Both the position numbers and the translations under genes were made by a program. From contig OZ231126.1 in NCBI GenBank assembly GCA_965153355.1, positions 10,850,001 to 10,914,000 of the forward strand: a stretch of DNA of 64,000 bases. Direction: 5' to 3'. The first letter of the stretch is position 1. The number at the start of each line of letters is the position of its first letter. This document shows positions 18,762-60,615 of this stretch, piece by piece. The notes under the pieces were generated by a model, which saw only the letters and a list, made by a program, of their open reading frames with translations, had not been told where the DNA came from and ran no database searches. The stretch comes from Flaccisagitta enflata. Its lineage: Eukaryota.

Positions 18762-19212
<451 letters not shown>

Positions 19213-21067: not shown

Positions 21068-21250
21068 CCTCTGGAACGTATTGGTTCCACCCTAAAAATG
21101 GGAAGAAAGCGATGAGAATGGCAATTCCCCAAACAACCCCTACGCACATCTTCGCTTTGGCTTGGTTCAACTTCATCGGCGACATTGGCCGAGTGATGCA
21201 AATGTATCGATCGATCGCCACGACGGCAACGGTGTTAATTTGCACAATAC
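21068..21250 (-). CDS. Opsin exon, TM3 (DRY)-TM4-ECL2
   Basis: acacag acceptor, phase 1. (G)IVQINTVAVVAIDRYICITRPMSPMKLNQAKAKMCVGVVWGIAILIAFFPFLGWNQYVPE(G). gtaagc donor. Confidence 0.93.
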
Positions 21251-21294
21251 CTGTGTCATAAGAGTGTTGATTAGTAGGAACACCTGGTACAAAA

Positions 21295-24206
<2,912 letters not shown>

Positions 24207-27200: not shown

Positions 27201-29070
27201 AGCTGAAGACGTGGTAAACGCTCGACGATGCCGTATTCCGGTTGTCGACCTCCTCAATCAGCCAACACTCTATTGTGAAGATTCCGACTTTGGACATCCA
27301 TCTAAACACTCAGATAAGAGTTCATGAATAATGTAATGCGAGTGAGTGTGAAATATATTCTGACTATATCCAATTTTTAATTCAAGAAGAAAAAAAATAT
27401 TTTCGGCTTTTAAGAGGACAGATATCATAGCTTAATGGCTTAATGGTGCTATTGGCTGCTTCTGGCAAACCCGACGATTGTTCTTTTTTTGATCTTTAGC
27501 CCGTGCCCTACTTTGTACGTGTTTGTTTCAAGCAAAGTTTGGTCGGTCTGTAAGTTATATACCCACTTTGCCACAATTGGGCTCATGTCAAATCTATGCC
27601 CCCCCCCCCATGCCGTGTACATTGTCCGTTGCTTTCTTTCAGTTTGCAGAAAGGGTAGAAGCATTCAGGAAGTTGACTGCGCTGCTTCAGTCTGTCCGTT
27701 TTGAATTGCATGATCATGCGCATTTTTAGGATTGAAACACGCGTGGTTTTTTTTTCCTCTAGCATCCTATGTTGTAGTTTAGACTGAATGGCAACGGATT
27801 TTCCAAAGAAATCCGATGGTGGGCAAATTTTTTGCGCCGAGAATGAATTTGAAACAGCTCTATTCCCGAGACAGACGACGAGTGTCGCCATCAAAAAAGG
27901 ACAATAATGTAAAAGCATTCAAGCAGTAAAATTTTTCATGTATCACACAGAGTCCACTTTTCTCTTCCGTTTCGAGTTTCTTTTCTTTCGCATTTTCTTT
28001 CTTTCGCTTTTGTCTGTTTTCACTGATCCCTCATAAATCCAAGTTTTTTGTTAATTGCGACATAGGGCTTTAATGTTTAGAATAGTTTTGCATCCAGTTT
28101 TTGATATTTTTTTTAAATCTTAACTTGGATCGCCAATTCCGCCCAATTCCGGTATCCCGGACCTGGATTCCGGAAGCTGCCTGACTTTTTTTTCTTTGGC
28201 GCCATGTACTCATTTCCCCCCTTATTTGGTTAAACATTAACGATTGCGAGATAGTCACAGTAAAATGGAAAAGAGTTTGTCAATTATCAATGATGGCAAT
28301 GTTTTGAAATAGTAGTAGGATGTTTTTTTCCCTCATATCTAGTCAATAGTCATTCCACAACAGGAGGAATATTTTAGGGCACCAACATGGTAAGCATTAA
28401 GCATGCTTGCAATACAGGGTGTTTCATATCAACTGGCTTTCTCCATCACGCTTCTAAAAAACAAGGCACTCGGCTTTTAAAACACTTCTGAGTGATAAGT
28501 CATAAAACAGTGGGTTTTTCCGCAGATTTGTGTGGTAAAAGAGTGCAATAACTTATCAAGAGTAAAAACAAAATCACTCCCCTAGCGCTTTTTGAGTAAT
28601 CATCAAAATAAGCAAAAAATTGGATCTATTTTCAATGCAGATTCTACTGAGGCGTGTTGACTTAATTTTTGACTCCATGTTGTTAATCGATGCAAAATTC
28701 CCTTTCATTTGATAGGTCGCACTCTATACGTTTTCAAAGAATTTAGATTTAAATTTCTTGAGTCACCGTTACAAAAAAACAACGGTGGCTCAAAATATGA
28801 AATCTTTATTTCTGCTTCAAACCATATAGTGTGACCTATCAAATGAAAGGGAATTTTGCATAGAATAACAAAATGGAATCAAAAAATGAGTTAATACAAC
28901 TCAAAAAAATCTGATCTGATTTTATTTTTGCTAGTTACATGCTCTTACACCCCAATACTACACAAAAATGCAGAAAAACCCACTGTTATATGACTTTTCA
29001 CTCAAAATTCTTTAAAAGCACAGTGCGACTAGAAGCTTTTTTTCTCTCCTGCCGCGGCTCAGGCAGGAGC

Positions 29071-29342
29071 AGTAATGTGGGTGAGCATGGGCAGAATTGC
29101 GGTTGGGCTGGGGCGGTATGTGTGAGGGCGGGGCGGTGATGTGGGCAGATGTTTAGCCGATAGTAATGTGGGTGAGCATGGGCAGTATTCCGGTTGGGCT
29201 GGGGCGGTATGTGTGAGGGCGGGGCGGTGAAGTGGGCAGATGTTTAGCCGATAGTAATGTGGGTGAGCATGGGCAGTATTCCGGTTGGGCTGGGGCGGTA
29301 TGTGTGAGGGCGGGGCGGTGAAGTGGGCAGATGTTTAGCCGA
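29071..29342. repeat. 90-bp minisatellite (3 units) inside a HINE-like element, mirrored at ~59530-59800
   Basis: AGTAATGTGGGTGAGCATGGGCAG...GATGTTTAGCCGAT x3. Confidence 0.9.
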
Positions 29343-32300
29343 TTTCACGTCGTCCAAGTTTCGCGTTCCCGACCTTTGCACCTTCCTTCCTAAAGACACA
29401 ACCTCTTATATAGTCGCAAAGCCAGCGACTAAAAAGATTCAAAGTAATGGATTTGTTGAGAGCAGCATTTATTGACAACCAACTAATCAACCGGTGGTTT
29501 AAACTAAGCCAGATACCAAGCTACCCCCGTCGCGTGCAAGTGGGCAGGGGCCATATTTGAGGTCAGTGGAGCATTCGGGCAGAAGCAGCATGGCCAAAAA
29601 CCCCATAAACGCCGAAAAAGGAAAGTGTGATGGACGGATGGATGGACCGACAGATGGACGGACAGACCAACAAAGCGGGGTGTAGAGTCACGTTGCACAT
29701 GAATTTTTTTTTTTTTTGGGGGGGGGGTCAACAAAATTCATTTATTCATTCATCATCTGCTACTCAACTAGTTTTTCCGATTTCCCTTTTTTCTCATGAG
29801 GCGTTTGAGAAAGTTGGTTAGCTTTTGGGGCCAAATGGTACTACGCATGAAATTAATAGCTAAGAAAGATCTAATTCTCCTCTTTCAGATGACGCCAAGC
29901 AGAATTCTGTGTGATCGATAGTTTAGGAGCTACAATTTTTTAAATCTTTTTTTGTTTTTTTTCGCATTTTCCCAAAAACAAGGAATCGAGGATTACAGGG
30001 TGTACCAACTCAGTTGTAATATAAAGAGGTGATGTATCTCTTAGCTTCTAAAGAAGATAATCCCATTCTGAAAAAAAGTTCCAAAGAGCTCTTAAAAAAC
30101 GATTTTTGCTCATGCTATAGCGCTAATAAAATTTTTCCGTCCAGAAAAGAATTTTACACATTCACAACCTGAAATAATGCAGCTATTTCTCAATTTGCAA
30201 TTTTAGTGACATTGCTCTCTTAGACACTTTTTCTTTAAGAGGCTCTCATTTCTAAACGGATTGAGCTAGAGACCTGAGATTGGTCCCAAATTGAAGAATT
30301 TTTGCAGTAGTTTTTGGCCCCATTAAAAAACATCCTCAAAATATTGAAGATTTTCTTTTTTCTTTCTTCAAAACCACATTTAAAAAAACAACTCAATTTT
30401 CAAAGGCATGAATTTGGCAAATATCATGCTATCTTTTCAAAAAATGTGAATTTTTCTATCTTTCACTATGCAGGATACCTTTAATTTGGGTCCAACTCTT
30501 CATGTTTTATCAAATTATTTACAGATGATACCTAAACAGGGAGTAGTTGTCATAGGAGATCAATGAAAAATGGCAAAATGGTTGCAAAAAGGCATGTACT
30601 TCCAAGCCATTTTCCATGACTGTTAATACCTTCCCATCATTTTTCCTCTTATTCTGTAAAAATCGTTTTTCAAAAGCTCTTTAGAATTTTTTTCAGAATT
30701 AGTTTATCTTATCTTTTTAGAAGCAGAGATACATCGATTCTTTATGTTACAACTGAGTTGGTACACCCTGTAGTTGAGGTCTATTTGAACTTTGAAATAT
30801 CCCAGGTGATGATTGTGCATCCTGGCATCACAGTCTTGCTCTCTTTTCAACTCAGTCCATCCATCAGTCCGTTGGGCCGTCTGTCTGTCCAAGTGGAAAA
30901 GCGGAAAACAAGCAGTCTAGATGCTTGTGAGTGGAGGTTCAGTTTTGGGTGTGGTAGGGGGTTGGATGGCTCTGTCCACCTGTCCAAAATGACATTGTAA
31001 CCCTGTTTTATTTGGAAAAAAGTCAAAGAGACTAAGTCCCTTCGGTCTTTTTGAGTCCTGCAGAGGAAAACGGATTTCCCTTTGTTTTAAGAGGCGTTTG
31101 GGCAAGGTCAGTTGATACATTTTGGGGGCAGAACGAGACTACGCATGGAATTAACAGCTAAGAAAGAGCTAATTCTCCTCTTTCAGATAACGCCAAGCAG
31201 AATTCTGTGCGATCGATAGATTTGGAACTATGATTTTTAAATCTTTTTATATTTTTTCGCATTTTTTGCATTTTCCCAAAAACGAGGAATCAAGTTGGTG
31301 GGAGTCTATTTGAATATTGAAATGTCCAAGGTGATGATAGTGTATCCTGGCAGCACAGTCTCTCTCAATTCAACTCTGGACACTATGAGAGGCTTTATCC
31401 GTCAGTCCATCCATTAGTCTGTTGGTCCGTCTGTCCGTCCGAGTGGAAAAGTGAAAAAACAAGCGGTCTGATGCTTGTGTGTGGGGGTTGAGGTTGAGAT
31501 GGGGGTTGGATGCCTCTGTCCACCTGTCCGCAACGAGTGAGAGAGACAAGAGGAGAGAGAAAATGAGAATGGGAGAGAGAAAGAGAGAGAGGAAGAGACG
31601 GGCAAACAAAGAACAAACAGACAAACACATGAGGAACAAACCAAAAAGATGCGCGGAGAATAACAAGGCCGGATACACGGCACCCCAGTCGCGGACGGTT
31701 GAGCAGCGGCAATAATGCCAAAACCACTCGCGAATCAAAAATGTTACGTGACGGACAGACCGACCGACCGACCGCCTTTATGGGTATGATTATTTTTAGT
31801 TTTGCGGAAGGGTAATTGCATAGGGACTTTCTCAAGAATGACTCGAAATTTTCGTTTTCGTCCCAAAGTTCTTCTCCAAATAAACATATTTGAAATGTAT
31901 ATCATGATAATATTCGGTTATTTCTCTGGAATTTACTCCTCTCAAAATCCCACCGGAATGGTTTAAAAAGGCAGTTGGGATTGTCTCTCATCATCGTTTC
32001 TCTGTTATGCTTTTCGATCAACGTTGAGACACAATTTCCAATTGAGTCCACGCTACTCGAGTACTCTTTTTGCGACAACGGTAAGACAACGGTTCCAATT
32101 TAGATGGTTCTAATTTAGATCGGGTTCATGTTACTCACTTGATTCGTTACAGACGGATAAACTGACGGACCAACCGATGTTTATGCAGCCTCATTGCATG
32201 CGACTAACCATTTTGCTTTTTAGTCGCGGACTAGGCTTTGTCCGTTTGTCCGTCTGTCCGTCTGTCGTTCCGTGCTAATCGAGTCAAAGAGTGGAAAAAC

Positions 32301-33085
32301 AAGCGTTCTAGATGCTTGTGTGTGGGGGGGTCGGGGTTGGGGTGTGGATGGGGGTTGAACGCCCGCGCCGTGCATCAGGCCTGATTTTAAGGCGAGCCCG
32401 CGAGCCCGATGCTCTCTATTTTGCTGTCGGGCGTTTATGTTGTGCGAGATGTGAGCCCGGGAGGCTCTCACAAATTAAGCTGCATATCGTGCTGCATATC
32501 AGCTGTTCTGTAAAAGGAACTATACGTTCTACTGCGTTGCAACTTGTGACGACCCGATCCTCAGGTCATTTCAAAAAGAAGGCAAAAAAAAATTTTACTT
32601 TTCGTTTCTTGATTTATTAATAGAGTTGTGGATTTCTTTATATAATGCTCCTCCAACATAAAATCCATCATGACAATTCAGATGAGAGAAGGTGTCAGAT
32701 GAGAGAAGGTTTGTTGCGGTAAAATAGTTGAAAATCGTCGAAAGTACTTAGATAGTTGAAAATCGTCGAAAGTACTTAGTTTAATCCACCAAATAGATTT
32801 TGATGATGGCAGAGTAGTCTCATTCAGTAATCGATAGGAAAAGTTTTTGTTTTTCGCTCAAACAAAATCTTTTCCCTCGTAACTTCAATATGCAAATTAG
32901 GGTTTTATGACGTCTTTTAACGGGCTCGCTGTTTTCCGATCGGGCTCAGTCAAATTGTGAGAAGCGAGCCCAAAAGGCTCAGTCAAAGAAATAGCTAAAA
33001 TCAGGCCTGCCCGTGCGCCCACCCTTCTGCGACAAGTTGGTAACCCTGCGTTACTTGTTTCCTCAGGCTTTTGGACAACTCTGTC

Positions 33086-33263
33086 ATGTCCGAGTACACG
33101 TATCCTCAAGTTGCTTTCCACGGCAATGACGAGGTTGAGATCCAACCGTCGCCGCTTTACGACGCCACGACGCCGTTGAACAGCGCAACGACGCCACTTA
33201 ACAGCACAACAACGCCCAAACGTGCCGAGTCTCGCACTTTATGGCGCTGCGACGACGGTGGCA

Positions 33264-33325
<62 letters not shown>

Positions 33326-35145
33326 TGAAGTGCTGCTGCCGTCTGGTCGTCGGTGCGTCTCCGGCGGCGGCGGCGGCATGTTACTAAAGACTCTAGCTTC
33401 TCAAGAAGCTAAGATAATCAAAGGATAAGCTTTTTCTAATTCTTTTAGATATCAAATCATGAATATTTTTCCAATATTCAAAATGATATGTAGCCTTTAT
33501 TGTTTAGCTTACCATATCTAAACAGTTTGAGCTACTCAGTCTATGGACATTTTGGTATTTGTAGATATGTCAGCAGTTTGGTATATTTCAACCCGTTGAA
33601 ATCTCTCATTCTGGCATATTTCAACAGGTTGAAATCTCTCATTTTGGCACATTTCAACACATTGAAATCTCTCATTCTACAAGAATAATGTCAGTAGAAT
33701 GAAAGATTTCAACCCATTGAAATATACCGGAATAAGAGATTTCAACGGGTTGACGTGCACCAAACTGCTGACATATCTACAAATACCGAAATGTCCAAAG
33801 ACTGTACTGGGACCAGATTGCACTCATTATGTTACCTATCTAGACTTCTTCCCCAACATAAGATGGCAATGACTGATAAGTCTAAAACAGATTTTGTGAC
33901 CAAGAGAGAAAAGTCAAAATAGAAAGGACCAAATATTGAAAACTTGAAATTTGACAATTTTTTTCTCAGAGGGCTGAAAATTTCAGACCAAGTGTCTTAA
34001 AACGCATAGACACCCCTTTAGTTGAGTTTACCTCTTTGCAAAATACACTCCTTAAAACTCTTAACTTTAAGAAAAAATGTTTAATTAATAATAGTGTCAT
34101 TCAAAAACCAAAAAACTGAACTGATCCTAAAAGTTACTCAATACTCATTAATGAATCCATACAATATTACCCCCATTCTCTACATGCAGGTTGGAAGATT
34201 TGGAATTCATTCTTGCTGATTACCATATTGTTGTTTGTGGTGGCTTTGAACATCCAAATCCATTTGTCTCGACCAAGGAAGACGAATGATGGTGAGCCGA
34301 CTTCTTCAGCGCGCCATGAAAACATCATGAAACATGTTCTGCATCAAATCAATGTCAGTGAAAAGGCAGAACCACCAAAGTACGAGGAAATTTTGGAGGA
34401 AACAGTCAATCTCCTAGAACGTCTGTTGCAAGGCCTGAATGATAGTTTGAGTGCATCAGTGGATGTTGCCGTTAATAATCTTAGGCGCAATGAAGAAGCC
34501 ATGACCATAAAACTCATTGAGTCTGTTGAAAAATTACTATCAAATCAGTCTGAGTCCATAAGTCAATTACAGCGAGGTACTTCAAATGAAAGACAGTTTA
34601 ACGATGCGAGAATTAAAATGATGATTGAGGCAATGGTCAATATTCAACAAAATCAGTCTGAAGCCTTGACCAGAATGCAGGAGCAAAATATAATGATGAT
34701 CAAGACTATGATTGATACACAGAACAACCAGTCTAAGTTCATCACGAAAATGCAAAAAGATGCTAAGGAGAAAAGTCAAAGTGATGAAGCAAGAAATGAA
34801 AAGCTCATCCAAACTATGAAACAAATTCAGCAAGACACGGTCAGGGACAGACAACTCAGTGACGAGAGAAAAGAAAAGATGATCGAGACCATGATCAACA
34901 TTCAACAAAATCAGTCCAGAGCTGTGACCCAAGCGCAGAAGCAGAACTTGATGATGATTAAGGCCATGATTGATTCACAAAACAACCTCTCTGAGGCACA
35001 AATGACCGCGGGGGAATAACAGGGTGATTGAGGCCATAACACTAATACACCAGGAGAACAAGGTGATGATGAAGGAAATGGTTGATACACAGCAAAATCA
35101 GTCTGAGGTCATAACACTAATACACCAGGAGAACAAGGCGATGTT
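33086..35145 (+). pseudogene. 5'-only duplicate of the lectin/SRCR receptor gene (exon 33086-33257, exon from 34190), truncated at the breakpoint
   Basis: Same sequence as 53789-55832 on the - strand. Ends abruptly in the coiled-coil region where retrotransposon sequence begins. Confidence 0.85.
33537..33804. mobile_element. Small palindromic MITE (mirrored at ~55130-55397)
   Basis: TIRs CAGTCTATGGACATTTTGGTATTTGTAGATATGTCAGCAGTTTGG / CCAAACTGCTGACATATCTACAAATACCGAAATGTCCAAAGACTG, with internal TTGAAAT..ATTTCAAC repeats. Confidence 0.75.
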
Positions 35146-43994: not shown

Positions 43995-44122
43995 GTTGGC
44001 TGTTGCGGATTTGTTAATGAGTTCTGTTGGGGTTATCACTCCCTTCATCGCATCTTACAACCAAACGTGGCCTTTTGGAGAAATTGGATGCGCCTACGAT
44101 GGATTCATTCACTACGTAGTAG
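43995..44122 (+). CDS. Opsin exon TM2-ECL1-TM3, on the opposite strand to the rest of the gene
   Basis: T-rich gacag acceptor and gtaact donor. LAVADLLMSSVGVITPFIASYNQTWPFGEIGCAYDGFIHYVV(G). Ends in phase 1, complementary to the exon starting at 21250. Confidence 0.9.
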
Positions 44123-44202
44123 GTAACTCGTACACAATCATTCATTCATTCATTCATTTATTCATTCACAACGCAATCGGTTATTCCAAAACAAAGTCTT
44201 TC

Positions 44203-44703: not shown

Positions 44704-45063
44704 TGCTACTTTCCATACATATGATGTCTCTCCGTCAACAAAAAGTCTTTCATTTTGATGAACTTACCGATCAATGATTATGAAGAGATTTTCTCAAATT
44801 TTTGAAGATCCCTTTGTTCTAGACCAGTCCAAAACTGACTGACAGGCCTCTTGATTCTGGAACAGCAAGTTCCGCTTCTCGGAAAGTCGCGGAAGACGAA
44901 AAAGAACAAGGTCGGATACACGGCAATCCAGTTGCGGACGGTTGGGCAGGAGCAGTAATGCAAAAACCGCTCGGAATCTAAAAATGTGACGGACCTACCG
45001 ATCTACCGACCTACCGACATACCGACCGACACGGCAAGGTGTAGAGTCGCGTGTCCCCGACTA

Positions 45064-46807
45064 CCCCGTGTTCAATCTCAAAGTGGGAAAAGCAAAAAGC
45101 TTATATTCCTAAACGCAACCAGTCAGTGATTTCAAATTATTTTTCTCTTGTAGTATTATGTTTGATGTTTTTAGTCGCGTGGACGCGACTCTATACCCCG
45201 CTTTGTCCGTCCGTTGGTCGGTCGGTCGGTCAGTCGGTCGGTCGGTCGGTCCCCATTTTACTTTTTTTATTCGTTTTATTCCTATTAAGTCATTTTAAGT
45301 CAATAAAGTGATTTTGAGTCAAATTAGATCATTTTAAATCATTTTAAGTCATTTTAACTCACTTTAAGTCAAATTAAGTCATTTGAGTCATTATTGAATT
45401 TTAGTCAATTTAAGTCAATCTAGGTCATTTTAAGTCATTTTAAGTAAATTCAAGTCAATTTAGGTCAGTTTAACTCAGTATAAGTCAATTTAAGGCAGTA
45501 TAAGTTAATTCAAGTCATTTTATGTCAAATTTAAGTCAAATTAAGTCATTTGAGTCATTATTGAATTTTAGTCATTTTAAGTCATTTTAAGTAAATTCAA
45601 GTCAATTTAAGTCAGTTCAACTCAGTATCAGTCAATTTAAGGCAGTATAAGTCAATTTTCATTTACATAATTATAGGTAATTATAGGTCATAATGCAATT
45701 TTGGGTAATCATAGGTAATTATAGGTCATTATAGGTCATTATGCAATTACAGGTAATCAAAGGTCATTATAGGTAATCATAAGTCATTATAGGTAATTAT
45801 AGGTTATTATTCAATTATAGGTCATTATAGGTAATTGTAGGTAATTATAGGTAATAATAGGTTATTATGCAATTATAGGTTATTATGCAATTATAGGTCA
45901 TTATGGGTAATTATAGGTTATTATAGGTAATTATAGGTTATTATGCAATTATAGGTCATTATTGGTCAGTATGTAATCATAGGTAATTTTAGGAAATTAT
46001 AGGCCATTATAGGTAATTATAGGTCATTATGTAATTATAGGTGTTTATAGGTCATAATAGGTAATTATAGGTCATTATGCAATTATAGGTCATTATTGGC
46101 AATTATAGGTCATTATGTAATTATAGATAATTATAGGTAATTATAGGTAATCTTAGGTCATTTAGTAATTATAGGTAATTTTAGGTCATTATAGGTAATT
46201 ATTGGTAATTGAAGGTCTTTATGCAATTATGGGTAATTATAGGTAATCAAAGGACATTAAAGGCAATTATAGGTCATTATGTAATTATAAGTAATAATAG
46301 GTAATTATAGGTTATTAATGGTAATTAAGTAAGTCTCGCACGCGACTTATAGGTGTTGGCCTTGTTTGTATAAAAATTTCATTGGTCTAGCCTTAATAGT
46401 TTGTCCACAACATTAATTTGAAGTAAAAAAAGTATGTAAAGTTTGAACTAAAAAACCCTCATTTTAATCATGATAGTTTTTCTTAAAATTACTCTAATTT
46501 CTAAACGGTTTGAGCTAAAAATGCCAGATTGGTCTCAAATGAAGTATATTTTGAAAATGCTTACATCTGAGACCAATCAAAATATTGAAAAACAGTGTTG
46601 ATAAAACTATACGTTTTTGAGCCTCAACTGTAAACACTTATTTTACTTCAAATTGATGTTGTGGATTAACTATTCAAGCTAGACCAATGAAAATTGTACA
46701 CAAAAAACGTCAAATATATAACTACAAGAAAAAACTGGTTTGAAGTCACTAAGTGCGTTTAGAAATGTAAGCTTTTTACTTTTCCCACTTTGAGATTGAA
46801 CACCCTG
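45064..46807. mobile_element. Tc1/mariner-type MITE interrupted by a satellite-bearing HINE (~45168-46364)
   Basis: TA flanks. TIR GTGTTCAATCTCAAAGTGGGAAAAG at both ends. The nested element carries TAAGTCAATT and ATTATAGGT arrays. Confidence 0.75.
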
Positions 46808-47647
46808 TAAAAAGAAGTAAAAGAAGAAAAAAGAAAAAGAAATGATGAAGAAGAAATAAGAAGAAAAAGAAGATGAAGAAAAAGAAGAAGAAGAAGAAGA
46901 AGAAGAAAAAGAAGAAGAAGAAGGTGAAGAAGAAGAAGAAGAAAGAGAACGAAGAGGGAAGGGCGGAGAAAGAAAAGCGACAGAAATCAGCATTAACATC
47001 CTCATTTGCATAGTGCAGTTTTATGAAGACTGCTGCATAACAGATCGATGATTTGTAATACAGTTAATTTGAGAAGAAACTGGAACGTAATATCTTAATC
47101 ATTATTCATTGGGATGTAAGAAGAGAAACTGTTTGCGCCTTTAAAACGTTATTTACTTTTTATTGTTTTTCATGTAACCTTCTGCGAATCAGATTTTTAG
47201 CTGCGGTCACGCAACTCCATAAGGGGTTTTGTCTGTCCAGTGTTTAGTCCGTCCGTCAATATGTCAAGGTGATGGAGTTGAAAAGTGGAAAAATGAGCGT
47301 TTTGGATAATTTTTGTGTATGTTTGTGAATGGAGTGAGGTTTATGGTGTATATGGGGTTTCGATGCCCCTGCCCACCCGTTCACAACGATATTGTGACCC
47401 CGCGTCACCTGTTCTGCACTTTTGAGGTCATTCTGTGCCATTAGCCGATGGCCTTGCACCCAAAATGAATATCCCACCTTAGAACTATACCAATGAGGGC
47501 GGTTCTTGCCGTAGGAAAAAAGTCTTAAATGTTGGGTTTGGAATTGTTTGTGATTCTGTTTTGTCTGTCTGTCTATCTGTCAGTGTGTGTCTCTGTCTCG
47601 CTGTGTCTCTGTCAGTGTGTTTCTCTGTCTCTCTGTCTCTCTGTCTC

Positions 47648-47703
<56 letters not shown>

Positions 47704-47755
47704 ATTCTCTGACAGATAGACAGACAGACAGAAAGAGGAAGAGAGAGAGAGAGTT

Positions 47756-47839
<84 letters not shown>

Positions 47840-47976
47840 AGAGAGAGAGAGAAAAAGAGAGAGGGTGAAAAAGAAAGAGAAAGTAAGATAGATAGGCAAA
47901 CAAATAGATAGACAAAGACAGACAGACAAAAAAAGAATAGGCAGAGAATGCTAGGAAAAGAGAGACAGTCAAACAG

Positions 47977-48054
<78 letters not shown>

Positions 48055-48997
48055 CAGACAGACATTGGATTTGTTGCCAGCAAGCGCAATTATCATTAAG
48101 GACAATTAAAAGTTCAAAAAGACTTTAACTAACTAAATTTCTCATTTTTGTGATAAGTGCAAAAATGCGAAAAAATACAAAAAGATTAAAAAAATCATAA
48201 CTCAAAAATTATTGATCCCACAGACAGGCGTGCATTTTCTTCTTTCCTTCCGAGTAGCTTATTTTTTCCCATTGAATATTCCGACTTGTCTATCATATTC
48301 TTGTCAAAAAGGCTAGTTACCGTGAGCGGTGCAATATCGAATATGAGTTTTATATTACTTCAGTCGTTTTTGCAACAGGATATTTAACGTGGAAACAATT
48401 TAAGCTCTGGTCAATATTTGAAAAAGAAAATTAGGCGCAAACTGAAATTTGTGACACGTATATTGGACTATTTGTAACGGTTCTCAAATAATGCAAGCCA
48501 GTTGTTGATCTTTAAACCGCGCACTGACAAGAATATGCCAAAAAAAATATGCATTTGCCATACCCTGAGTGACAAGATGACCATGATCCCTCCATATCTC
48601 AAAAGCGATATGAGGAGCTAATTTGCATATTGCAGTAGCAAGACTTCCGGATTACCTTCTGGGGGCATTTTCAGATGGCGGGGGATCTATCCCGCCCAAA
48701 AACTATTGGTGATGGCTTAGTGGGTAAATATGAAAGCCTGGAGGATCTACAAAAGTCACAGAAGCTGAAGGGAGTAAAGAGTCAAAGACTGAGCGAGTGA
48801 AACGGGATGGAAGTAGATGCTATAAACCTTGTTCCCGATTGTTTACTCTATCTTCTTCACTATCTTTTTTTCTTCTTCTTCCTCTTCTCTTTCTCTTTTT
48901 CTTTTTCTCTTCCTTTTTCTTTTTCTTTTTCTTTTTCTTCTTCGATCTTCCGAGATGCGCCCATATCATTCCGAGTGGCGGCGCTACCCGCTACTCC

Positions 48998-50433
48998 ATA
49001 ATAGTCGCAAAAGCGTTAGATGGTCAGCGGTACCCGTTGCCCCTATGTGAGTGTATGTTGGTGAGAGGTGGTTAGAGGGGCAGCGGCCCCGAAGGAGCCG
49101 ATGACCTATGCTGTTTTTATCTAAGCTTTAAGGCTGGAATTAGGGCCTGGAGGCTGGGATATGAGCCTTGCGGCTGGGATTTGAGCCTAGGAGCTGGATT
49201 TAGAGTCTCGAGCTGATATTTGAGCCACAAGGCTGGGATTTGAGCCTCAAGACTGGGATTTGAGCCTTGAGGCTAGGATTTGGGCCTTGAGGATGGGATT
49301 TAAGCCTTGAGGCTGGAATTTGAGCCTTTAGGCTGGGATTTGAGCCTATAGACTGGGATTTGAGCCTCGAGATTGGGATTTGAGCTTTGAGGCTTGGGTT
49401 TGTGAGATTTCAGCCTCGAGGCTGGATTTGAGCTTTGAGGCTGAGATTTGAGCTTTGAGGCTGGGATTTGAGCTTTGAGGCTGGAATTTGAACTTTGAGG
49501 CTAGGATTTGAGCCTCAAGGCTAGGATTTGGGCCTTGAGACTACGATTAGGGCCTCGAGACTAGGATTTTGGTCTCGACAGGGGGGGGGGGGACGTGGGA
49601 GAAGAAGGAGGAGGAGGAGAAGGAGGAGAAATTTCTCCTGTGTGAAAGCATAGGTCATCGGCCCCTTCGGGGCCGCTGCCCAAAAAGCACCCCTGCCCAC
49701 AGAATTCTGCTTGGCGCCATCTGAAAGAGAAAAATTAGTTCTTTCTCAGCTATCAATTTCATGCGTAGTCCCAATCGGCCCCCAAAACTTACCACCATTC
49801 CCGAACGCCCCACAAGAAATAGTCGCAAAAGCGTTACATGGTCAGCGGTGCCCGATGCCCCTAAGTTAGTGTATGTGGGAATGAGATTATGAGAGGGGCA
49901 GCGGCCCCGGAGGGGCCGATGACCTATGATTCCACATAGGACAATTTTCTGCGGTTTGAGAAGCTGGTTTGGAGGGCTGAGAGGCCTGATTTTGGCTGTG
50001 AAAGGTCTGATTTAGGTTGTGAGAGGCGTGGTTTGGGGTCTGAGAGGCTTGATTTGGGGTCTGAAAGGCGTTATTTGGATCTGAGGGGTCTAATTTGGGG
50101 TCTGAAAATCCTGACATGGGGTCTGAGGCTTGATTTTGATCTGAAAGGCCTAATTTGGGGTCTGAGAAGCCTGATCTGGGGTCTGGGAGGCCTGATTTGG
50201 GTTTTAAGAGGCCTGATTTGGGGTCTGGGAGGCCTGATTTGAGGTCTAAGAAGCCTGATTTGGGGTCAGAAAGGTCTTATTTGGAGTCGAAAAGGCCTGA
50301 TTTGGGGTCTGAGAGGCTTGATCTGAGGCTTGGGGGAGGGGAGGGGACGGACGGACGGACGGACGGAAACCGGAGAAAATTGCCCTATGTGGAATCATAG
50401 GTCATCGGCCCCTCCGGGGCCGCTGCCCAAAAA
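48998..50433. mobile_element. Two further GGGCAGCGGCCCC-family Helentron-like copies (~48998-49686, ~49818-50433)
   Basis: Same ends as the 1-8716 clusters, with 20-bp GGCTGGGATTTGAGCCT.. and 21-bp GGCCTGATTTGGGGTCTGAGA arrays. Confidence 0.75.
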
Positions 50434-50668
50434 GGAAAATCAATTTCCGTAGGTCTCAAAAAATTTGTAAAAAACAACATTCCTAAGCCATAAATGATTC
50501 TATTGCCTGAAAATATATGAATTTTGGAACAGTGGGCCTTGTTTTGTCACCAAATGCCCATTTATGGGTTTCTACCGATGAAGAATTGTAAGTCTAAAAG
50601 CTAAAACTTCATACCAAATTTTGTACGGTTTTTAAAGTTTTATATTTTCTCAACATTATAGTGTGGAG

Positions 50669-50848
50669 GCCGTTTTTTTCTGTGACTTCACATCACCATT
50701 GAAAAATGTCCCTCCTATCCAATATTTCTCAGTTCGATTTACATTAGTCATGCCTATCAACTCGGCATTTTCCTTTGGACCAAATATCTCAGCCAAAACA
50801 CCCCCAAGTGCCAAGTGCCGGTTTTTTCTGTGACTTCGCATCATCATT
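50669..50848. other. ~117-bp copy of lectin-domain sequence inserted between ~32-bp direct repeats
   Basis: 50696-50812 matches 52172-52288. Flanks are GCCGTTTTTTTCTGTGACTTCACATCACCATT and GCCGGTTTTTTCTGTGACTTCGCATCATCATT. Confidence 0.85.
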
Positions 50849-51109
50849 ATCGCAGTATGACTAATGAGCTCGCCGCTGACTAACATCTTTTAGTCTCTAC
50901 TTTCTACTAGGAGAAGTTTTTGTTTGGTGCGCCTCTATAACACCCTACAGGACTGTTTAAAAGACAAGGCAAAAGAATTCATAGACACTATACAATTTTT
51001 CAAACAAGAAATGGTGTTGATCAAAGCAACATCAATATTTACATGTTAACTCTCAAAGAAGCGAAAGCAAAAAATTAATTGTGTTCTTTTCCAGACTAGT
51101 AGAAAATTG

Positions 51110-54100
51110 ATCAATACAAAATGAAATTGTTTTGAAAGAGAGCACCACATGGAAACGAATCTTTCCAGGGCACCAGCTTGATTTCATATATATGTGTATG
51201 GGTCCCATTTGAAATGAGAGAATTTGTTATTCAGTTTTGGCACTGAAGATCAAATTCGATGAATCAATTTTCGACTGTGATTTCATCTTGGTTTTGGCAA
51301 ATGAACCATGATGGGTTTTCATTTACACGGTTCTGCTCGTTCATTTGTGAACTCGTGAAACTCACTGCATTTCCCTTAAAAGCTGAGTTACAACGAACTC
51401 CTGCAGCTTCTGAATTACCACAATCATGCTTCTTAATGTGAGTGCAATCTATCAATCGCATTTCGGATCCTGCACAATCAACATCATCCATGGCAAAATC
51501 AGCTCCTAAACCCGTGCCAAATGATGAACTTGAGGTATATGTTGCTCCAGCAACTGGAAATCCTAATTCTCTGCAAACTACTCGTGCATCAGTGTTATCC
51601 CATCCATCATCGCAGACGGGCTTCCCATGAATGACGACGTTGCCTTCCCACGGATAAGAACCGCCGTACAATCTTAGGTCGCGGCCATAATTTGGTATGC
51701 GACCTGATTGGGTCATCCAGGTTCCCGATGCAATAATCTTCCTTGCCTGTTGCGCAAAAAATGTCACGTTCAATTTCAGCTGGTTTCCATCCGCTAATGT
51801 CCCATTGAACTCCTGGGAGCAAAATCTTCGAGCTTCCTCTCTTGATTTCTGAGCCGTAATGAAATTAAAGCATTTTTGCGTCAGAATAATTTGATGTCGG
51901 GATTCACGATTAGTATTTGTCAAATTTACGCAAGCGGGCGTCGAAATGTGATCCAACCACTCAATCTGTCGGTAGGAATCCTTTTCAGTGGGTTTGAAGA
52001 TCTCACATATAAATTTTCTCCATTAGAAACAAGGCGTTGATAGCCAGTGGTGCATTGTCACTGGGGGTAAACTGCAAACATTTATTCTCGCGAGAAGCGA
52101 TTGTTCTGTCATAATCCCAATCTGAGTAATGATCGCTGATCAAAGTGGAACTGTTTCCCCACATCCACGAGCCATTGAAAAATGTCCCTCCTATCCAATA
52201 TTTCTCAGTTCGATTTACATTAGTCACGCCTATCAACTCGGCATTTTCCTTTGGACCAGATATCTCAGCCAAAACACCCCCGAGTGCCGCGCATGTCGCT
52301 TGCGCCAGGATCCATGGCGCTGGATACATGGAACTTCTGTAGCACGATGGTAGATAGTCGGGACAAACAGGCTCGGTCATCAGGATATTGGAAGTTTCCG
52401 ATGCCTCTTCTTGATAATGCAATGACTTGGTTTCACAAATGAACCAATGTTTGGTGTCGCAGTCGATCGTTTTCCATCTTTTCTGGCTGACATCGAAGAC
52501 AGCGCAGGAGGACTCAAACTATTCATTCAAGATCCAATTGGCAGCCATTGGATGGGCTTGCCTCATTTCCTCGACTTCATTCTCGTTCTCACCATCCCAG
52601 AACCATCAACCATCTGATCTTGGCTGTGTTTGTTTGGCGCCAATCCAGAAGGTGGCTTTAGTAGGCGATATTTGACTAAGTAAAAAATCCACCTCACTAT
52701 TATCTCTGATTGTTACTAGTTTACCATCAAGCTGCGTGCAAAACTCTTGGGCTCTAACACGGGACATGGGTGTTAGCGTCTGATCAATATAGTAGCATTT
52801 GTCGCTTTGTCCTTTTGGGCCCAAATGTGTGTATTTTTTGGGCAAATGATTCGGACAAGCATAATGAAGACTGAGCAAAGGGTCAGTATGTAAAATGGCA
52901 TCCAGCTTTGTTTCTATAACTGATTGATTATGTTGCGAAAGAGTCCCTGATTGTAATGCCTGAGAATGGTTCTGTTTTAGTGATGTAATAACTTCCGCTA
53001 AATGGCGCAAGTCAAAAGCTGGCGTTTGTTCTATGGCCTCTATCAACTCTGCGGACAAATTAACCTGCATCCGCATTATTTGTCCAAATCTAGCATCCAC
53101 TGTGACATCATGAGTTTGCAATGCTCAGCATTGTCTTTGTACCACGGCATCAAGTAAAACTTCAGATTGATTGTTATGAATTTGAGCCAAGGATTTCAAC
53201 ATTTTCTCAATCCTAGAACTGTCTGTGACGCACATTTTATTCAGCGTGTTCTCTTGTAATTGATTCAAGCCTTCCATGAAATCATTGGATTGATTCTGTT
53301 GCATTTTGGACATGATCTCAACTATTTCTAAAATTTTAGCTGTTATGATTGGCGTTTGCTCTTCAAATGAATCTCGTTTCATTTGTGCCATTGTTTCAAA
53401 CATCACGATTGACTGATTGTGTTGTGTTTTGATCAAATTGTTAATCAAATTTTCATTTTGTGCATGCAGGAGATTCCTTTCTTTTAGCGCCTTGTTCTCT
53501 ATTGTGGTTATGGCTTGTGACTGATTCTGCATTATATCAATAAAGATATTAATCATCCTTTCATTTCGGTCATCCATAAGCTGCCTTACCCTGCGAACCT
53601 CCTGCTTGGTTACTTCACTTCTTGCGGTAGCGAGTTGGTTTTCTTTAAGTATATTCGCCTGCATTATTGCTACAGCCTCGGACTGGTTTTGCTGTGTATC
53701 AACCATTGCCTTCAACATCGCCTTGTTCTCCCGCTGTATTATTTTTATGGCCTTAGACTGGTTTTGCTGTGTATCAACCATTGTCTTCAACATCGCCTTG
53801 TTCTCCTGGTGTATTAGTGTTATGACCTCAGACTGATTTTGCTGTGTATCAACCATTTCCTTCATCATCACCTTGTTCTCCTGGTGTATTAGTGTTATGG
53901 CCTCAATCACCCTGTTATTCCCCCGCGGTCATTTGTGCCTCAGAGAGGTTGTTTTGTGAATCAATCATGGCCTTAATCATCATCAAGTTCTGCTTCTGCG
54001 CTTGGGTCACAGCTCTGGACTGATTTTGTTGAATGTTGATCATGGTCTCGATCATCTTTTCTTTTCTCTCGTCACTGAGTTGTCTGTCCCTGACCGTGTC

Positions 54101-55556
54101 TTGCTGAATTTGTTTCATAGTTTGGATGAGCTTTTCATTTCTTGCTTCATCACTTTGACTTTTCTCCTTAGCATCTTTTTGCATTTTCGTGATGAACTTA
54201 GACTGGTTGTTCTGTGTATCAATCATAGTCTTGATCATCATTATATTTTGCTCCTGCATTCTGGTCAAGGCTTCAGACTGATTTTGTTGAATATTGACCA
54301 TTGCCTCAATCATCATTTTAATTCTCGCATCGTTAAACTGTCTTTCATTTGAAGTACCTCGCTGTAATTGACTTATGGACTCAGACTGATTTGATAGTAA
54401 TTTTTCAACAGACTCAATGAGTTTTATGGTCATGGCTTCTTCATTGCGCCTAAGATTATTAACGGCAACATCCACTGATGCACTCAAACTATCATTCAGG
54501 CCTTGCAACAGACGTTCTAGGAGATTGACTGTTTCCTCCAAAATTTCCTCGTACTTTGGTGGTTCTGCCTTTTCACTGACATTGATTTGATGCAGAACAT
54601 GTTTCATGATGTTTTCATGGCGCGCTGAAGAAGTCGGCTCACCATCATTCGTCTTCCTTGGTCGAGACAAATGGATTTGGATGTTCAAAGCCACCACAAA
54701 CAACAATATGGTAATCAGCAAGAATGAATTCCAAATCTTCCAACCTGCATGTAGAGAATGGGGGTAATATTGTATGGATTCATTAATGAGTATTGAGTAA
54801 CTTTTAGGATCAGTTCAGTTTTTTGGTTTTTGAATGACACTATTATTAATTAAACATTTTTTCTTAAAGTTAAGAGTTTTAAGGAGTGTATTTTGCAAAG
54901 AGGTAAACTCAACTAAAGGGGTGTCTATGCGTTTTAAGACACTTGGTCTGAAATTTTCAGCCCTCTGAGAAAAAAATTGTCAAATTTCAAGTTTTCAATA
55001 TTTGGTCCTTTCTATTTTGACTTTTCTCTCTTGGTCACAAAATCTGTTTTAGACTTATCAGTCATTGCCATCTTATGTTGGGGAAGAAGTCTAGATAGGT
55101 AACATAATGAGTGCAATCTGGTCCCAGTACAGTCTTTGGACATTTCGGTATTTGTAGATATGTCAGCAGTTTGGTGCACGTCAACCCGTTGAAATCTCTT
55201 ATTCCGGTATATTTCAATGGGTTGAAATCTTTCATTCTACTGATATTAATCTTGTAGAATGAGAGATTTCAATGTGTTGAAATGTGCCAAAATGAGAGAT
55301 TTCAACCCGTTGAAATATGCCAGAATAAAAAATTTCAACAGGTTGAAATATACCAGACTGCTGACATATCTACAAATACCAAAATGTCCATAGACTGAGT
55401 AGCTCAAACTGTTTAGATATGGTAAGCTAAACAATAAAGGCTACATATCATTTTGAATATTGGAAAAATATTCATGATTTGATATCTAAAAGAATTAGAA
55501 AAAGCTTATCCTTTGATTATCTTAGCTTCTTGAGAAGCTAGAGTCTTTAGTAACAT

Positions 55557-55654
<98 letters not shown>

Positions 55655-55832
55655 TGCCACCGTCGTCGCAGCGCCATAAAGTGCGAGACTCGGCACGTTT
55701 GGGCGTTGTTGTGCTGTTAAGTGGCGTCGTTGCGCTGTTCAACGGCGTCGTGGCGTCGTAAAGCGGCGACGGTTGGATCTCAACCTCGTCATTGCCGTGG
55801 AAAGCAACTTGAGGATACGTGTACTCGGACAT
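51110..55832 (-). pseudogene. Type II membrane receptor pseudogene: cytoplasmic tail, TM anchor, long coiled coil, at least 3 C-type lectin domains and one SRCR domain
   Basis: Exon 55661-55832 (MSEYTYPQV...RCDD) splices in phase 1 to a large exon starting at 54744 (WKIWNSFLLITILLFVVAL). QNQS-repeat coiled coil. CTLD motifs KCYY..AQEFC..FWIG..WFICE and AQATC..YWIG. SRCR LRLYGG..EGNV..VCDDGWDNTDARVVCRELG..AAGVRC. Lesions: frameshift at 53920-53924, stops at 53125, 52606, 52519, a frameshift and stop near 52030-52050, and more below 51266. Confidence 0.85.
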
Positions 55833-58800
55833 GACAGAGTTGTCCAAAAGCCTGAGGAAACAAGTAACGCAGGGTTACCAACTTGTCGCAGAAGGGTGGG
55901 CGCACGGGCAGGCCTGATTTTAGCTATTTCTTTGACTGAGCCTTTTGGGCTCACTTCTCACAATTTGACTGAGCCCGATCGGAAAACAGCGAGCCCGTTT
56001 AAAGACGTCATAAAACCCTAATTTGCATATTGAAGTTACGAGGAAAAAGATTTTGTTTGAGCGGAAAACAAACACTTTTCCTATCGATTACTGAATGAGA
56101 CTATTCTGCCATCATCAAAATCTATTTGGTGGATTAAACTAAGTACTTTCGACGATTTTCAACTATTTTGCCGCAACAAACCTTCTCTCATCTGAATTGT
56201 CATGATGGATTTTATGTTGGAGGAGCATTATATAAAGAAATCCACAACTCTATTAATAAATCAAGAAACGAAAAGTAAAATTTTTTTTTGCCTTCTTTTT
56301 GAAATGACCTGAGGATCGGGTCGTCACAAGTTGCAACGCAGTAGAACGTATAGTTCCTTTTACAGAACAGCTGATATGCAGCACGATATGCAGCTTAATT
56401 TGTGAGAGCCTCCCGGGCTCACATCTCGCACAACATAAACGCCCGACAGCAAAATAGAGAGCATCGGGCTCGCGGGCTCGCCTTAAAATCAGGCCTGATG
56501 CACGGCGCGGGCGTTCAACCCCCATCCACACCCCAACCCCGACCCCCCCACACACAAGCATCTAGAACGCTTGTTTTTCCACTCTTTGACTCGATTAGCA
56601 CGGAACGACAGACGGACAGACGGACAAACGGACAAAGCCTAGTCCGCGACTAAAAAGCAAAATGGTTAGTCGCATGCAATGAGGCTGCATAAACATCGGT
56701 TGGTCCGTCAGTTTATCCGTCTGTAACGAATCAAGTGAGTAACATGAACCCGATCTAAATTAGAACCATCTAAATTGGAACCGTTGTCTTACCGTTGTCG
56801 CAAAAAGAGTACTCGAGTAGCGTGGACTCAATTGGAAATTGTGTCTCAACGTTGATCGAAAAGCATAACAGAGAAACGATGATGAGAGACAATCCCAACT
56901 GCCTTTTTAAACCATTCCGGTGGGATTTTGAGAGGAGTAAATTCCAGAGAAATAACCGAATATTATCATGATATACATTTCAAATATGTTTATTTGGAGA
57001 AGAACTTTGGGACGAAAACGAAAATTTCGAGTCATTCTTGAGAAAGTCCCTATGCAATTACCCTTCCGCAAAACTAAAAATAATCATACCCATAAAGGCG
57101 GCTCTCGCCGTAGGAAAAAAGTCATAAGTGCGAGGTTTTGGAATTTCTTGTGATTGTGTTTTGTCTAGTTGTTTGCCTTTTTTTTTCTCTGGGCATCTTT
57201 TTGGTTTGTTCTTTTCTCTACATGTGTTTCTCTGTTTGTTCTTTGTTTGCCCGTCTCTTCCTCTCTTTCTCTCTCCCATTCTCATTTTCTCTCTCCCCTT
57301 TTCTCTCTCTCTCCCCTTCTCTCATGTAACACGGTGTTACAATAAAGTTGCGGACAGGTGGACAGAGGCATCCACACCCCAACCTCAACCTCAACCCCCA
57401 CACACAAGCATCAGACCGCTTGTTTTTCCACTTTTTCACTTGGACGGACAGACAGACCAACAGACCAATGGATGGACTGACGGATAAAGCCTCTCATAGT
57501 GTCCAGAGTTGAATTGAGAGAGACTGTGCTGCCAGGATACACTATCATCACCTTGGACATTTCAATATTCAAATAGACTTCAACTAACTTGATTCCTCGT
57601 TTTTGGGAAAAATGCAAAAAAAGCAAAAAAATATAAAAAGATTTAAAAAATCATAGTTCCAAAACTATCAATCGCACAGAATTCTGCTTGGCGTCATCTG
57701 AAAGAGGAGAATTAGCTCTTTCTTAGCTATTAATTTCATGCGTAGTCCCATTCTGCCCGAAAAATGCATCAACTTGCCCAAACGCCTCTTAAAACAAAGG
57801 GAAATCCGTTTTCCTCTGCAGGACTCAAAAAGACCGAAGGGACTTAGTCTCTTTGACTTTTTTCCAAATAAAACAGGGTTACAATGTCATTTTGGACAGG
57901 TGGACAGAGCCATCCAACCCCCTACCACACCCCAAACTGAACCCCCACACACAAGCATCTAGACCGCTTGTTTTTCCGCTTTTCCACTTGGACAGACAGA
58001 CGGCCCAACGGACTGATGGATGGACTGAGTTGAAAAGAGAGCAAGACTGTGATGCCAGGATGCACAATCATCACCTGGGATATTTCAAAGTTCAAATAGA
58101 CCTCAACTACAGGGTGTACCAACTCAGTTGTAACATAAAGAATCGATGTATCTCTGCTTCTAAAAAAGATAAACTAATTCTGAAAAAAATTCTAAAGAGC
58201 TTTTGAAAAACGATTTTTGCTGAATAAGAGGAAAATGATGGGAAGGTATTAACAGTCATGGAAAAATGGCTTGGAAGTACATGCCTTTTTGCAACCATTT
58301 TGCCATTTTTCATTGATCTCCTATGACAACTACTCCCTGTTTAGGTATCATCTGTAAATAATTTGATAAAACATGAAGAGTTGGACCCAAATTAAAGGTA
58401 TCCTGCATAGTGAAAGATAGAAAAATTCACATTTTTTGGAAAGATAGCATGATATTTGCCAAATTCATGCCTTTGAAAATCGAGTTGTTTTTTTTTAAAT
58501 GTGGTTTTGAAGAAAGAAAAAAGAAAATCTTCAATATTTTGAGGATGTTTTTTAATGGGGCCAAAAACTACTGCAAAAATTCTTCAATTTGGGACCAATC
58601 TCAGGTCTCTAGCTCAATCCGTTTAGAAATGAGAGCCTCTTAAAGAAAAAGTGTCTATGAGCAATGTCAGCCAAAATTGCAAATTGAGAAATAGCTGCAT
58701 TATTTCAGGTTGTGAATGTGTAAAATTCTTTTCTGGACGGAAAAATTTTATTAGCGCTATAGCATGAGCAAAAATCGTTTTTTAAGAGCTCTTTGGAACT

Positions 58801-60615
58801 TTTTTTCAGAATGGGATTATCTTCTTTAGAAGCAGAGATACATCGATTCTTTATGTTACAACTGAGTTGGTACACCCTGTAACTCGATTCCTTGTTTTTG
58901 GGAAAAATGCGAAAAAACAAAAAAAGATTTAAAAAATTGTAGCTCCTAAACTATCGATCACACAGAATTCTGCTTGGCGTCATCTGAAAGAGGAGAATTA
59001 GATCTTTCTTAGCTATTAATTTCATGCGTAGTACCATTTGGCCCCAAAAGCTTACCAACTTTCTCAAACGCCTCATGAGAAAAAAGGGAAATCGGAAAAA
59101 CTAGTTGAGTAGCAGATGATGAATGAATAAATGAATTTTGTTGACCCCCCCCCCCAAAAAAAAAAAATTCGCGTGCAACGTGACTCTACACCCCGCTTTG
59201 TTGGTCTGTCCGTCCATCTGTCGGTCCATCCATCCGTCCATCACACTTTCCTTTTTCGGCGTTTATGGGGTTTTTGGCCATGCTGCTTCTGCCCGAATGC
59301 TCCACTGACCTCAAATATGGCCCCTGCCCACTTGCACGCGACGGGGGTAGCTTGGTATCTGGCTTAGTTTAAACCACCGGTTGATTAGTTGGTTGTCAAT
59401 AAATGCTGCTCTCAACAAATCCATTACTTTGAATCTTTTTAGTCGCTGGCTTTGCGACTATATAAGAGGTTGTGTCTTTAGGAAGGAAGGTGCAAAGGTC
59501 GGGAACGCGAAACTTGGACGACGTGAAATCGGCTAAACATCTGCCCACTTCACCGCCCCGCCCTCACACATACCGCCCCAGCCCAACCGGAATACTGCCC
59601 ATGCTCACCCACATTACTATCGGCTAAACATCTGCCCACTTCACCGCCCCGCCCTCACACATACCGCCCCAGCCCAACCGGAATACTGCCCATGCTCACC
59701 CACATTACTATCGGCTAAACATCTGCCCACATCACCGCCCCGCCCTCACACATACCGCCCCAGCCCAACCGCAATTCTGCCCATGCTCACCCACATTACT
59801 GCTCCTGCCCACCCACTAGCGACTACTTATTGGCCGTCACTGTGCTTTTAATAGAATTTTGAGTGAAAAGTCATATAACTGCGGGTTTTTCTGCATTTTT
59901 GTGTAGTATTGGGGTGTAAGAGCATGTAACTAGCAAAAATAAAATCAGATCAGATTTTTTTGAGTTGTATTAACTCATTTTTTGATTCCATGTTGTTATT
60001 CTATGCAAAATTCCCTTTCATTTGATAGGTCACACTATATGGTTTGAAGCAGAAATAAAGATTTCATATTTTGAGCCACCGTTGTTTTTTTGTAACGGTG
60101 ACTCAAGAAATTTAAATCTAAATTCTTTGAAAACGTATAGAGTGCGACCTATCAAATGAAAGGGAATTTTGCATCGATTAACAACATGGAGTCAAAAATT
60201 AAGTCAACACGCCTCAGTAGAATCTGCATTGAAAATAGATCCAATTTTTTGCTTATTTTGATGATTACTCAAAAAGCGCTAGGGGAGTGATTTTGTTTTT
60301 ACTCTTGATAAGTTATTGCACTCTTTTACCACACAAATCTGCGGAAAAACCCACTGTTTTATGACTTATCACTCAGAAGTGTTTTAAAAGCCGAGTGCCT
60401 TGTTTTTTAGAAGCGTGATGGAGAAAGCCAGTTGATATGAAACACCCTGTATTGCAAGCATGCTTAATGCTTACCATGTTGGTGCCCTAAAATATTCCTC
60501 CTGTTGTGGAATGACTATTGACTAGATATGAGGGAAAAAAACATCCTACTACTATTTCAAAACATTGCCATCATTGATAATTGACAAACTCTTTTCCATT
60601 TTACTGTGACTATCT
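53789..60615 (-). repeat. Right arm of the ~6.9 kb inverted duplication
   Basis: Reverse complement of 28249-35145. This arm is continuous with the rest of the lectin gene. Confidence 0.97.
55557..55654. repeat. (GCC)n trinucleotide tract (interrupted counterpart at 33263-33377)
   Basis: Directly visible. Confidence 0.95.

Follow-up and report, generated by a model that had tools for sequence, protein, structure and literature searches.

An opsin exon on the opposite strand in an arrow worm assembly: a probably collinear xenopsin gene and a possible mis-join

In the assembly of the chaetognath Flaccisagitta enflata (GCA_965153355.1), a stretch of 64 kb on contig OZ231126.1 (positions 10,850,001 to 10,914,000; hereafter the window, with positions counted from its first letter) carries an opsin gene that appears to be split between the two strands. 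Our analysis confirmed this reading of the locus: exons 3-8 of a xenopsin lie on the minus strand (21250 down to 10145), and exon 2 lies on the plus strand, inside a segment (35146-53788) that is bounded by inverted repeat arms of about 6.9 kb. Such a locus raises the question of whether the gene is switched on and off by inversion, broken in one allele, repaired at the level of RNA, or wrongly assembled. The evidence points to an ordinary collinear xenopsin in the species, which was either misassembled here or rearranged once in a single allele, and to no gene switch. A single non-native junction, 35145|35146, underlies both the inverted repeat and the flipped exon 2, and we give a probability of roughly 45% to the reading that both are products of an assembly mis-join. 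If so, one locus, or its two haplotypes, would have been laid down partly twice and in opposite directions. The true order would then be left flank, arm, and 53788 down to 35146, exon 2 would be collinear with the rest of the gene across an intron 2 of 23.6 kb, and exon 1 would be found beyond the window, on the upstream side.

Exon 2 and the minus-strand xenopsin gene

Exons were placed by tblastn with four chaetognath xenopsins (rows for two of them) and by a profile built from four sequences. Exon 2 (43995-44122, plus strand) encodes transmembrane helix 2 (TM2) to the start of TM3; tblastn, Pfam and the splice sites agree on it, and it is single copy in the window. All other exons that were found are on the minus strand. 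Exon 3 (21250-21068; 60 codons) encodes TM3 with the DRY motif and TM4, exon 4 (20725-20589) the cysteine of the second extracellular loop and TM5, and exon 5 (19384-19279) the third intracellular loop. Exon 6 (18760-18595) spans TM6-TM7 with the retinal lysine and the motifs DPILY and NKR, exon 7 (10561-10477) encodes an acidic C-terminal tail, and exon 8 (10198-10145) holds the coding end including the stop codon. Acceptors of exons 2-8 are AG in 7/7 cases and internal donors GT in 6/6. A preliminary description of this DNA had already assigned the opsin exons to the minus strand and the sole exon 2 to the plus strand, and the coordinates, the splice sites and the searches for a second copy uphold this; to that description we add the start of exon 4 at 20725, the continuation of the gene to 10145 through exons 7 and 8, and the finding that exon 1 is not in the window.

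When exons 2-8 were joined by their coordinates, the result was a single open frame of 285 codons plus stop, which bears out the earlier statement that the opsin exons are undamaged. The final G of exon 2 and the leading GT of exon 3 form the Gly codon across the join, as had been proposed, and the count of 24 residues from Cys to the D of DRY was also right; for this stretch the numbering of bovine rhodopsin is presumed to apply. The joined frame aligns with residues 87-371 of P0001, a protein of 371 residues, without a gap and with 251/285 residues identical (88%), and it shares 219 of 278 aligned residues with the xenopsin of Spadella cephaloptera (P0004). The DRY motif at the end of TM3 and the retinal lysine of TM7, whose positions we take to equal bovine E134 and K296, are present in the translation and are conserved in P0001-P0004.

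All four exons that were scanned (2, 3, 4 and 6) matched Pfam 7tm_1, with E-values from 3.1e-11 to 1.2e-4; exon 3, at 43.7 bits, is the sole one above the curated cut-off by itself. The profile ranges are consecutive, from 26-67 in exon 2 and 71-128 in exon 3 to 136-179 and 211-260 in exons 4 and 6. Since the range of exon 2 directly precedes that of exon 3, the claim that exon 2 is the missing piece of the minus-strand gene holds. Reversing 35146-53788 makes the gene collinear, again as claimed, and leaves one intron 2 of 23,561 nt by computation, for which about 23.5 kb had been given. Variants DPILY and NKR have been described for chaetognath xenopsins (PMC10952353), and both were found in the translation of this gene. 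The locus thus resembles the chaetognath xenopsins in its 7tm_1 domain, retinal lysine, DRY, DPILY, NKR and sequence identity, and differs from them in that the first ~86 codons are not in the window and that exon 2 is on the other strand in the assembly. Judged by its sequence, with xenopsins as its closest named relatives, the gene is a chaetognath xenopsin: an ordinary minus-strand gene with long, repeat-filled introns.

A simple way to account for the two strands would be two paralogues, i.e. a plus-strand gene that owns exon 2 and a minus-strand gene with its own exon 2 outside the window. Two xenopsin copies have been reported in two chaetognath species (PMC10952353), which would suit this view. 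However, neither tblastn nor the four-sequence profile found a second exon 2 on either strand of the 64-kb window, so that a minus-strand exon 2 is absent there, and so are a plus-strand exon 1 and plus-strand exons 3-8. Two genes would need introns of >19.9 kb and >42.7 kb, with an exon 1 >44 kb upstream across another gene. Moreover, exons 2 and 3 are similarly close to the same relative, P0001 (88% and 92% identity). We therefore regard two paralogues as the least credible account of the locus; the preliminary description had named such exons as the sign of separate genes, and within the window the sign did not appear.

Exon 1 (~86 codons, comprising the N-terminus and TM1) was not found on either strand of the window, where the best match of an N-terminal profile had an E-value of 0.33 among 3053 six-frame pieces; from the same pieces, the full-length profile recovers the seven other exons with E-values from 7.7e-38 to 0.0043. 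Exon 1 may lie beyond the window. A TM1 candidate at 39946-40053, a weak tblastn match (E about 1), was rejected as low-complexity sequence.

The repeat arms and the junctions at their inner ends

The left arm (28249-35145; 6897 nt) ends at the non-native junction 35145|35146, and the right arm (53789-60615; 6827 nt) joins the segment natively. Between them, very high-copy repeats make up most of the 18,643-nt segment; unique sequence forms islands around exon 2 and at 50676-53788. The limits of the arms given earlier were recovered in two ways: nine of 16 inverted pairs (I1-I9) tile the arms, far above chance, and a MAFFT alignment of the two arms has 6954 columns with 130 substitutions and 184 indel columns (indels up to 28 nt). 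Divergence is uneven along the arms. No difference occurs in the outer 623 nt (28249-28871) or in the inner 1455 nt (33691-35145), which makes the ends 0% diverged, against about 2% in the middle. The window contains 0 N. The right flank has no reverse-complement likeness to the left flank, and has only dispersed short repeats in common with the rest of the window.

The content of the arms shows which junction is the native one. A neighbouring gene on the minus strand (51267-54814) encodes a lectin/SRCR protein, with its membrane anchor and coiled coil in the right arm and its two Lectin_C domains and SRCR domain (Pfam) in the segment. Its open reading frames (ORFs) are 54814-53918 and 53928-53128, for the membrane anchor and the coiled-coil repeats, and 53124-51267, for the two C-type lectin domains and SRCR. 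Because the lectin/SRCR frame continues unbroken across the arm border, the junction 53788|53789 is native. The left arm holds, on the plus strand at 34120-35145, a copy of the 5' part of this gene that is identical to the right-arm copy, stops mid coiled-coil repeat at 35145, and abuts a retroelement integrase fragment (35191-35850, minus strand; zinc-binding domain only, Pfam Integrase_H2C2, E 2.4e-6). The arms are thus a partial copy of a host gene, neither a mobile element nor a recombination site. High-copy sequence begins exactly at 35146, with a depth of about 1e5 over the integrase fragment in the DNA run described below. As to the lectin/SRCR protein itself, it is type-II-like, with long coiled-coil repeat units that end in QQNQS.

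The part of the window from 34001 to 54000 was compared with four runs: RNA reads (X12), two sets of metatranscriptome contigs (X8 and X9), and DNA contigs from the same species and study (X1). This part takes in 1145 nt from one arm and 212 nt from its counterpart. De Bruijn contigs, such as those of Logan, are expected to break at a branch if a second junction has similar coverage. In X1, record 2 (1220 nt, 0 differences) passes from 53290-53788 straight into the arm, where it was placed on 35145-34425, and has no break at the arm end. Among the matches listed, the native junction stands alone at the inner end of the arm; this holds for one run, for contigs, and for the inner 1.1 kb. Due to the fact that the inner 1455 nt are identical in both arms, the assembly predicts a depth ratio of arm to unique sequence of 2:1, plus a branch. 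The ratio in X1 is ~1:1, with depths of 76.6 (record 1) and 85 (record 2) at the inner end of the arm and of 83.8-91.9 in the adjacent unique contigs (records 5-7).

How this bears on the assembly depends on whose DNA X1 is. Over 3317 nt (records 1, 2, 5, 6 and 7), the X1 contigs have 0 differences from the assembly. The two alleles are kept side by side in X1 with depths of 78-98 each (e.g. 92.6 of 171.1 at place 51460), and the other allele, at equal depth, differs by six letters in stretches of 63-77 nt (43828-43890 and 51460-51536), or about 8%. This points to very high heterozygosity of the locus, about 8% locally, and the identity suggests, as far as sequence can, that X1 comes from the assembled specimen or carries the same haplotype. 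If X1 does come from the assembled specimen, then the second arm copy and the junction 35145|35146 would be absent from the animal. Two points here are ones that we infer: that X1 represents the assembled specimen or haplotype, and how the mis-join came about. Elsewhere in X1, 35146-43890 and 44128-50675 are very high-copy (depth 1e4 to 1e6), with unique islands at exon 2 and at 50676-54000. Joints around exon 2 in X1 (e.g. 43279 to 44934) were not taken as a sign of an exon inside a mobile element; their sides are 20-26 letters long and lie beside simple repeats.

A mis-join is therefore favoured by the unbranched record 2 and the ~1:1 depth of the arm, by the identity of X1 and assembly over 3317 nt, and by the fact that only the right arm runs natively into the segment, with the retroelement starting exactly at 35146; the functional behaviour of the gene in the species, described below, agrees with it as well. 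Contig paths typically go astray where such high-copy sequence begins. Long-read assemblies of heterozygous genomes can contain false duplications and haplotype mis-joins, usually at gaps or contig ends. The present locus is like them in that the duplicated stretch is single-copy by depth, the junction lies at a high-copy repeat and the locus is very heterozygous, and unlike them in that the join is seamless and the copies are 130 substitutions apart.

The last two features belong to a set of points that weigh against a mis-join. With 130 substitutions and indels up to 28 nt between them, the arms are not the same reads printed twice, and the junction 35145|35146 has no N gap. A mis-join needs at least one chimeric junction, together with a haplotype switch and a large allelic indel at the outer border of the arm, and the two flanks are not allelic to each other. 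X1, which contained 0.67 of the sampled words, may not be the assembled specimen. The comparison took in the 1145 nt and 212 nt of the arms given above, and contigs show presence only, so a contig with 35145|35146 could sit among 137,678 further pieces and 1295 loose ends. The breakage of Logan contigs at branches is itself a general expectation. Should the mis-join be real, the locus needs correction before opsins are annotated or counted in this genome; gene finders would call a truncated xenopsin and a spurious extra fragment of the lectin gene.

An inverted allele, a flipping segment or rescue by trans-splicing

The same observations could arise from a real inversion that is private to one haplotype, and we consider this the main rival of the mis-join, somewhat less probable than it. 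In this account, about 25 kb (arm and segment) were inverted by staggered breaks, which left a 6.9-kb inverted duplication at both ends and a broken opsin allele; alternatively, an inverted duplication came first and its arms recombined afterwards. X1 and the wild RNA would then show the standard allele, in which there is a single arm and the gene is collinear. The topology is exactly that of inversions with inverted breakpoint duplications of unique, often genic sequence (PMC1885836), and such duplications were reported for 17/29 inversions in Drosophila by Ranz et al. 2007 (PMC1885836). The locus shares with these the inverted copies of non-repetitive, partly genic sequence at both ends, and one native and one new end; it differs in the uneven divergence of its arms, and in that the event may exist only in the assembly. 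The duplicated stretch, with the 5' part of the lectin/SRCR gene and a single-copy depth in X1 over the part compared, is ancestrally unique and stands inverted at both ends, as staggered breaks would have it.

Several further features suit a private inversion. The arms copy part of a host gene and look single-copy in X1, as expected of the standard arrangement; the junction is clean and without N; the arms differ by true substitutions; and the undamaged opsin exons fit a young or recessive null allele. On the other hand, a haplotype identical over 3317 nt would be unexpected in X1 if it came from another wild individual, given how diverse the species is; if it came from the assembled specimen, a real duplication is contradicted by the 1:1 depth. 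Nor did the two new junctions allow the ancestral one to be reconstructed: the integrase fragment cut at 35146 is resumed neither at 60616, where a simple two-break inversion places its other half, nor at 28248, and an integrase core was not found from 60616 onward or below 28248. Moreover, ends that are 0% and a middle that is about 2% diverged demand extra exchange events between the arms. If the inversion is real and private, it would be a clean natural knock-out allele of the eye opsin, and would add, from outside insects, a case of an inversion that arose together with an inverted duplication at its breakpoints.

The preliminary description had gone further and proposed a standing inverted repeat whose segment flips by recombination of the arms, so that the opsin is intact or broken within a population or an animal. 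Recurrent inversions arise by non-allelic homologous recombination between inverted segmental duplications. Here, too, there are long, near-identical inverted arms, a segment of tens of kb, and a flip that makes no new junctions. Homologous recombination could readily use arms of 6.9 kb that have identical ends and are separated by 18.6 kb; one flip restores the normal gene; and as no new junction sequence arises, flipping is beyond exclusion by short contigs. The difference is that the second arm is unsupported in X1 and that both orientations are not evidenced. The depth and the unbranched contig of X1 speak against a second arm junction in that run, and beyond its geometry the proposal has nothing positive in its favour.

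A programmed switch would further call for dedicated parts. Inverted repeats that bound the segment are present in the assembly; a dedicated recombinase or dedicated sites were not found. A Pfam scan of 16 ORFs from the arms, the segment and the left flank found no recombinase family, its matches being Lectin_C, SRCR and one Integrase_H2C2, and Rfam gave 0 matches. The arms are an accidental partial gene copy with no dedicated site. Both arms were not seen in the independent DNA of X1, within the contigs and the inner 1.1 kb compared. Thus the geometry of the preliminary description stands, its two interconvertible states found no support, in view of the lack of a recombinase among the ORFs scanned, the host-gene origin of the arms and the single-copy arm end in X1, and the alternatives it had itself allowed for, a polymorphic event or an assembly mis-orientation, fit better. 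We consider flipping improbable. If it were true, intact and broken alleles of an arrow worm's main visual opsin would segregate side by side.

RNA bears on whether an inverted gene could still yield its message. Record 13 of X8 (334 nt) fits the window at 43995-44125 only and goes on with 185 unlike letters; record 17 of X9 (265 nt) fits only up to 44125 and goes on with 181 unlike letters. The three matched letters past exon 2 (to 44125) are common to the intron and exon 3. As these metatranscriptome contigs end at the borders of exon 2, wild animals splice the exon where predicted, on both sides. From their length alone, the tails would be the remaining 180 letters of exon 3. The exon-2 variants listed in X8 and X1 are synonymous in 4/4 cases. 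With its open frame, its synonymous exon-2 variants and its spliced exon 2, the xenopsin gene behaves as functional in the species. X12 yielded 0 reads on exon 2 and on the lectin/SRCR gene in about 6/100 of the run, and is uninformative on expression; a pile of X12 reads at 45205-45251 proved to be a (GGTC)n microsatellite.

Wild genomic sequences also carry the exon. A protein search with exon 2 returned three short metagenome genomic fragments with the same intron flanks (P0005 and P0006, 98%; P0007, 90%), which confirm exon 2 in the wild and are silent on its orientation. A 35-nt arm end had 0 matches in Joint Genome Institute (JGI) metagenome contigs, exon 3 had 595 pattern matches in these contigs with 0 confirmed, and the 61-codon frame spanning 35145|35146 gave no candidate as a protein query.

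In principle, the inversion could be real and fixed, with the mRNA rebuilt by trans-splicing of an antisense-strand transcript with exon 2. In C. elegans eri-6/7, inverted 5' exons are rescued in this way: wild strains are polymorphic for the arrangement, with the collinear gene as the ancestral state; direct repeats of about 930 bp, derived from Polinton terminal repeats, flank the exons; and the trans-spliced mRNA has been demonstrated (PMC11414722). Spliced leaders are widely used in chaetognaths, where in one species almost half of all genes acquire one (PMC12460157), and wild RNA shows splicing on both sides of exon 2. The likeness to eri-6/7 is a repeat-flanked coding exon on the strand opposite to the rest of the gene. 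Here, however, the arms are inverted, 6.9 kb long and taken from the 5' part of a host gene, and an internal exon alone is flipped. An upstream transcription unit of the eri-6/7 type, from a first exon onward, was not found on the plus strand. Trans-splicing is unlikely: the 44 kb of that strand which precede exon 2 contain no exon 1, so that two trans-splicing steps would be required; X1 argues against a fixed repeat, the tails of the RNA contigs are known by length only, and X12 gave 0 exon-2 reads. We hold rescue of a fixed inversion to be very improbable. Taken as one proposition, that exon 2 sits in a cassette flipping recurrently in part of the population, or that an inverted allele is rescued by trans-splicing as in eri-6/7, has little probability, and the wider interest of the locus is limited to this small remaining chance.

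Repeats in the segment and the introns

A few smaller features of the locus were observed. In the segment, 80 nt downstream of the exon-2 donor, lies a 500-nt hairpin-forming element (44203-44703) whose arms (44203-44389 and 44542-44703) are 93-100% complementary; its X1 depth of 460-600 suggests a small, MITE-like (miniature inverted-repeat transposable element) repeat family. Further towards the left arm, an open frame of 518 codons (40671-42224, minus strand) without a Pfam match is very high-copy (X1 depth about 5e5) and lies beside long CAG/CTG-like low-complexity tracts. The frame probably belongs to an uncharacterised mobile element.

Intron 3 contains, just upstream of the real exon 4, two degenerate tandem copies of the first part of that exon (20776-20956, minus strand). 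The one at 20956-20912 has 73% identity over 15 residues (E 0.004), and the other is at 20814-20776 (E 1.9); they look like decayed local duplications and not like usable alternative exons. (CATT)n microsatellites occur in the introns by exons 2, 5 and 6 (18762-19490, minus strand; 44128-44172, plus strand), always in sense orientation to the adjacent exon, and intron 5 has long (GT)n/(CT)n tracts at about 19000-19240.

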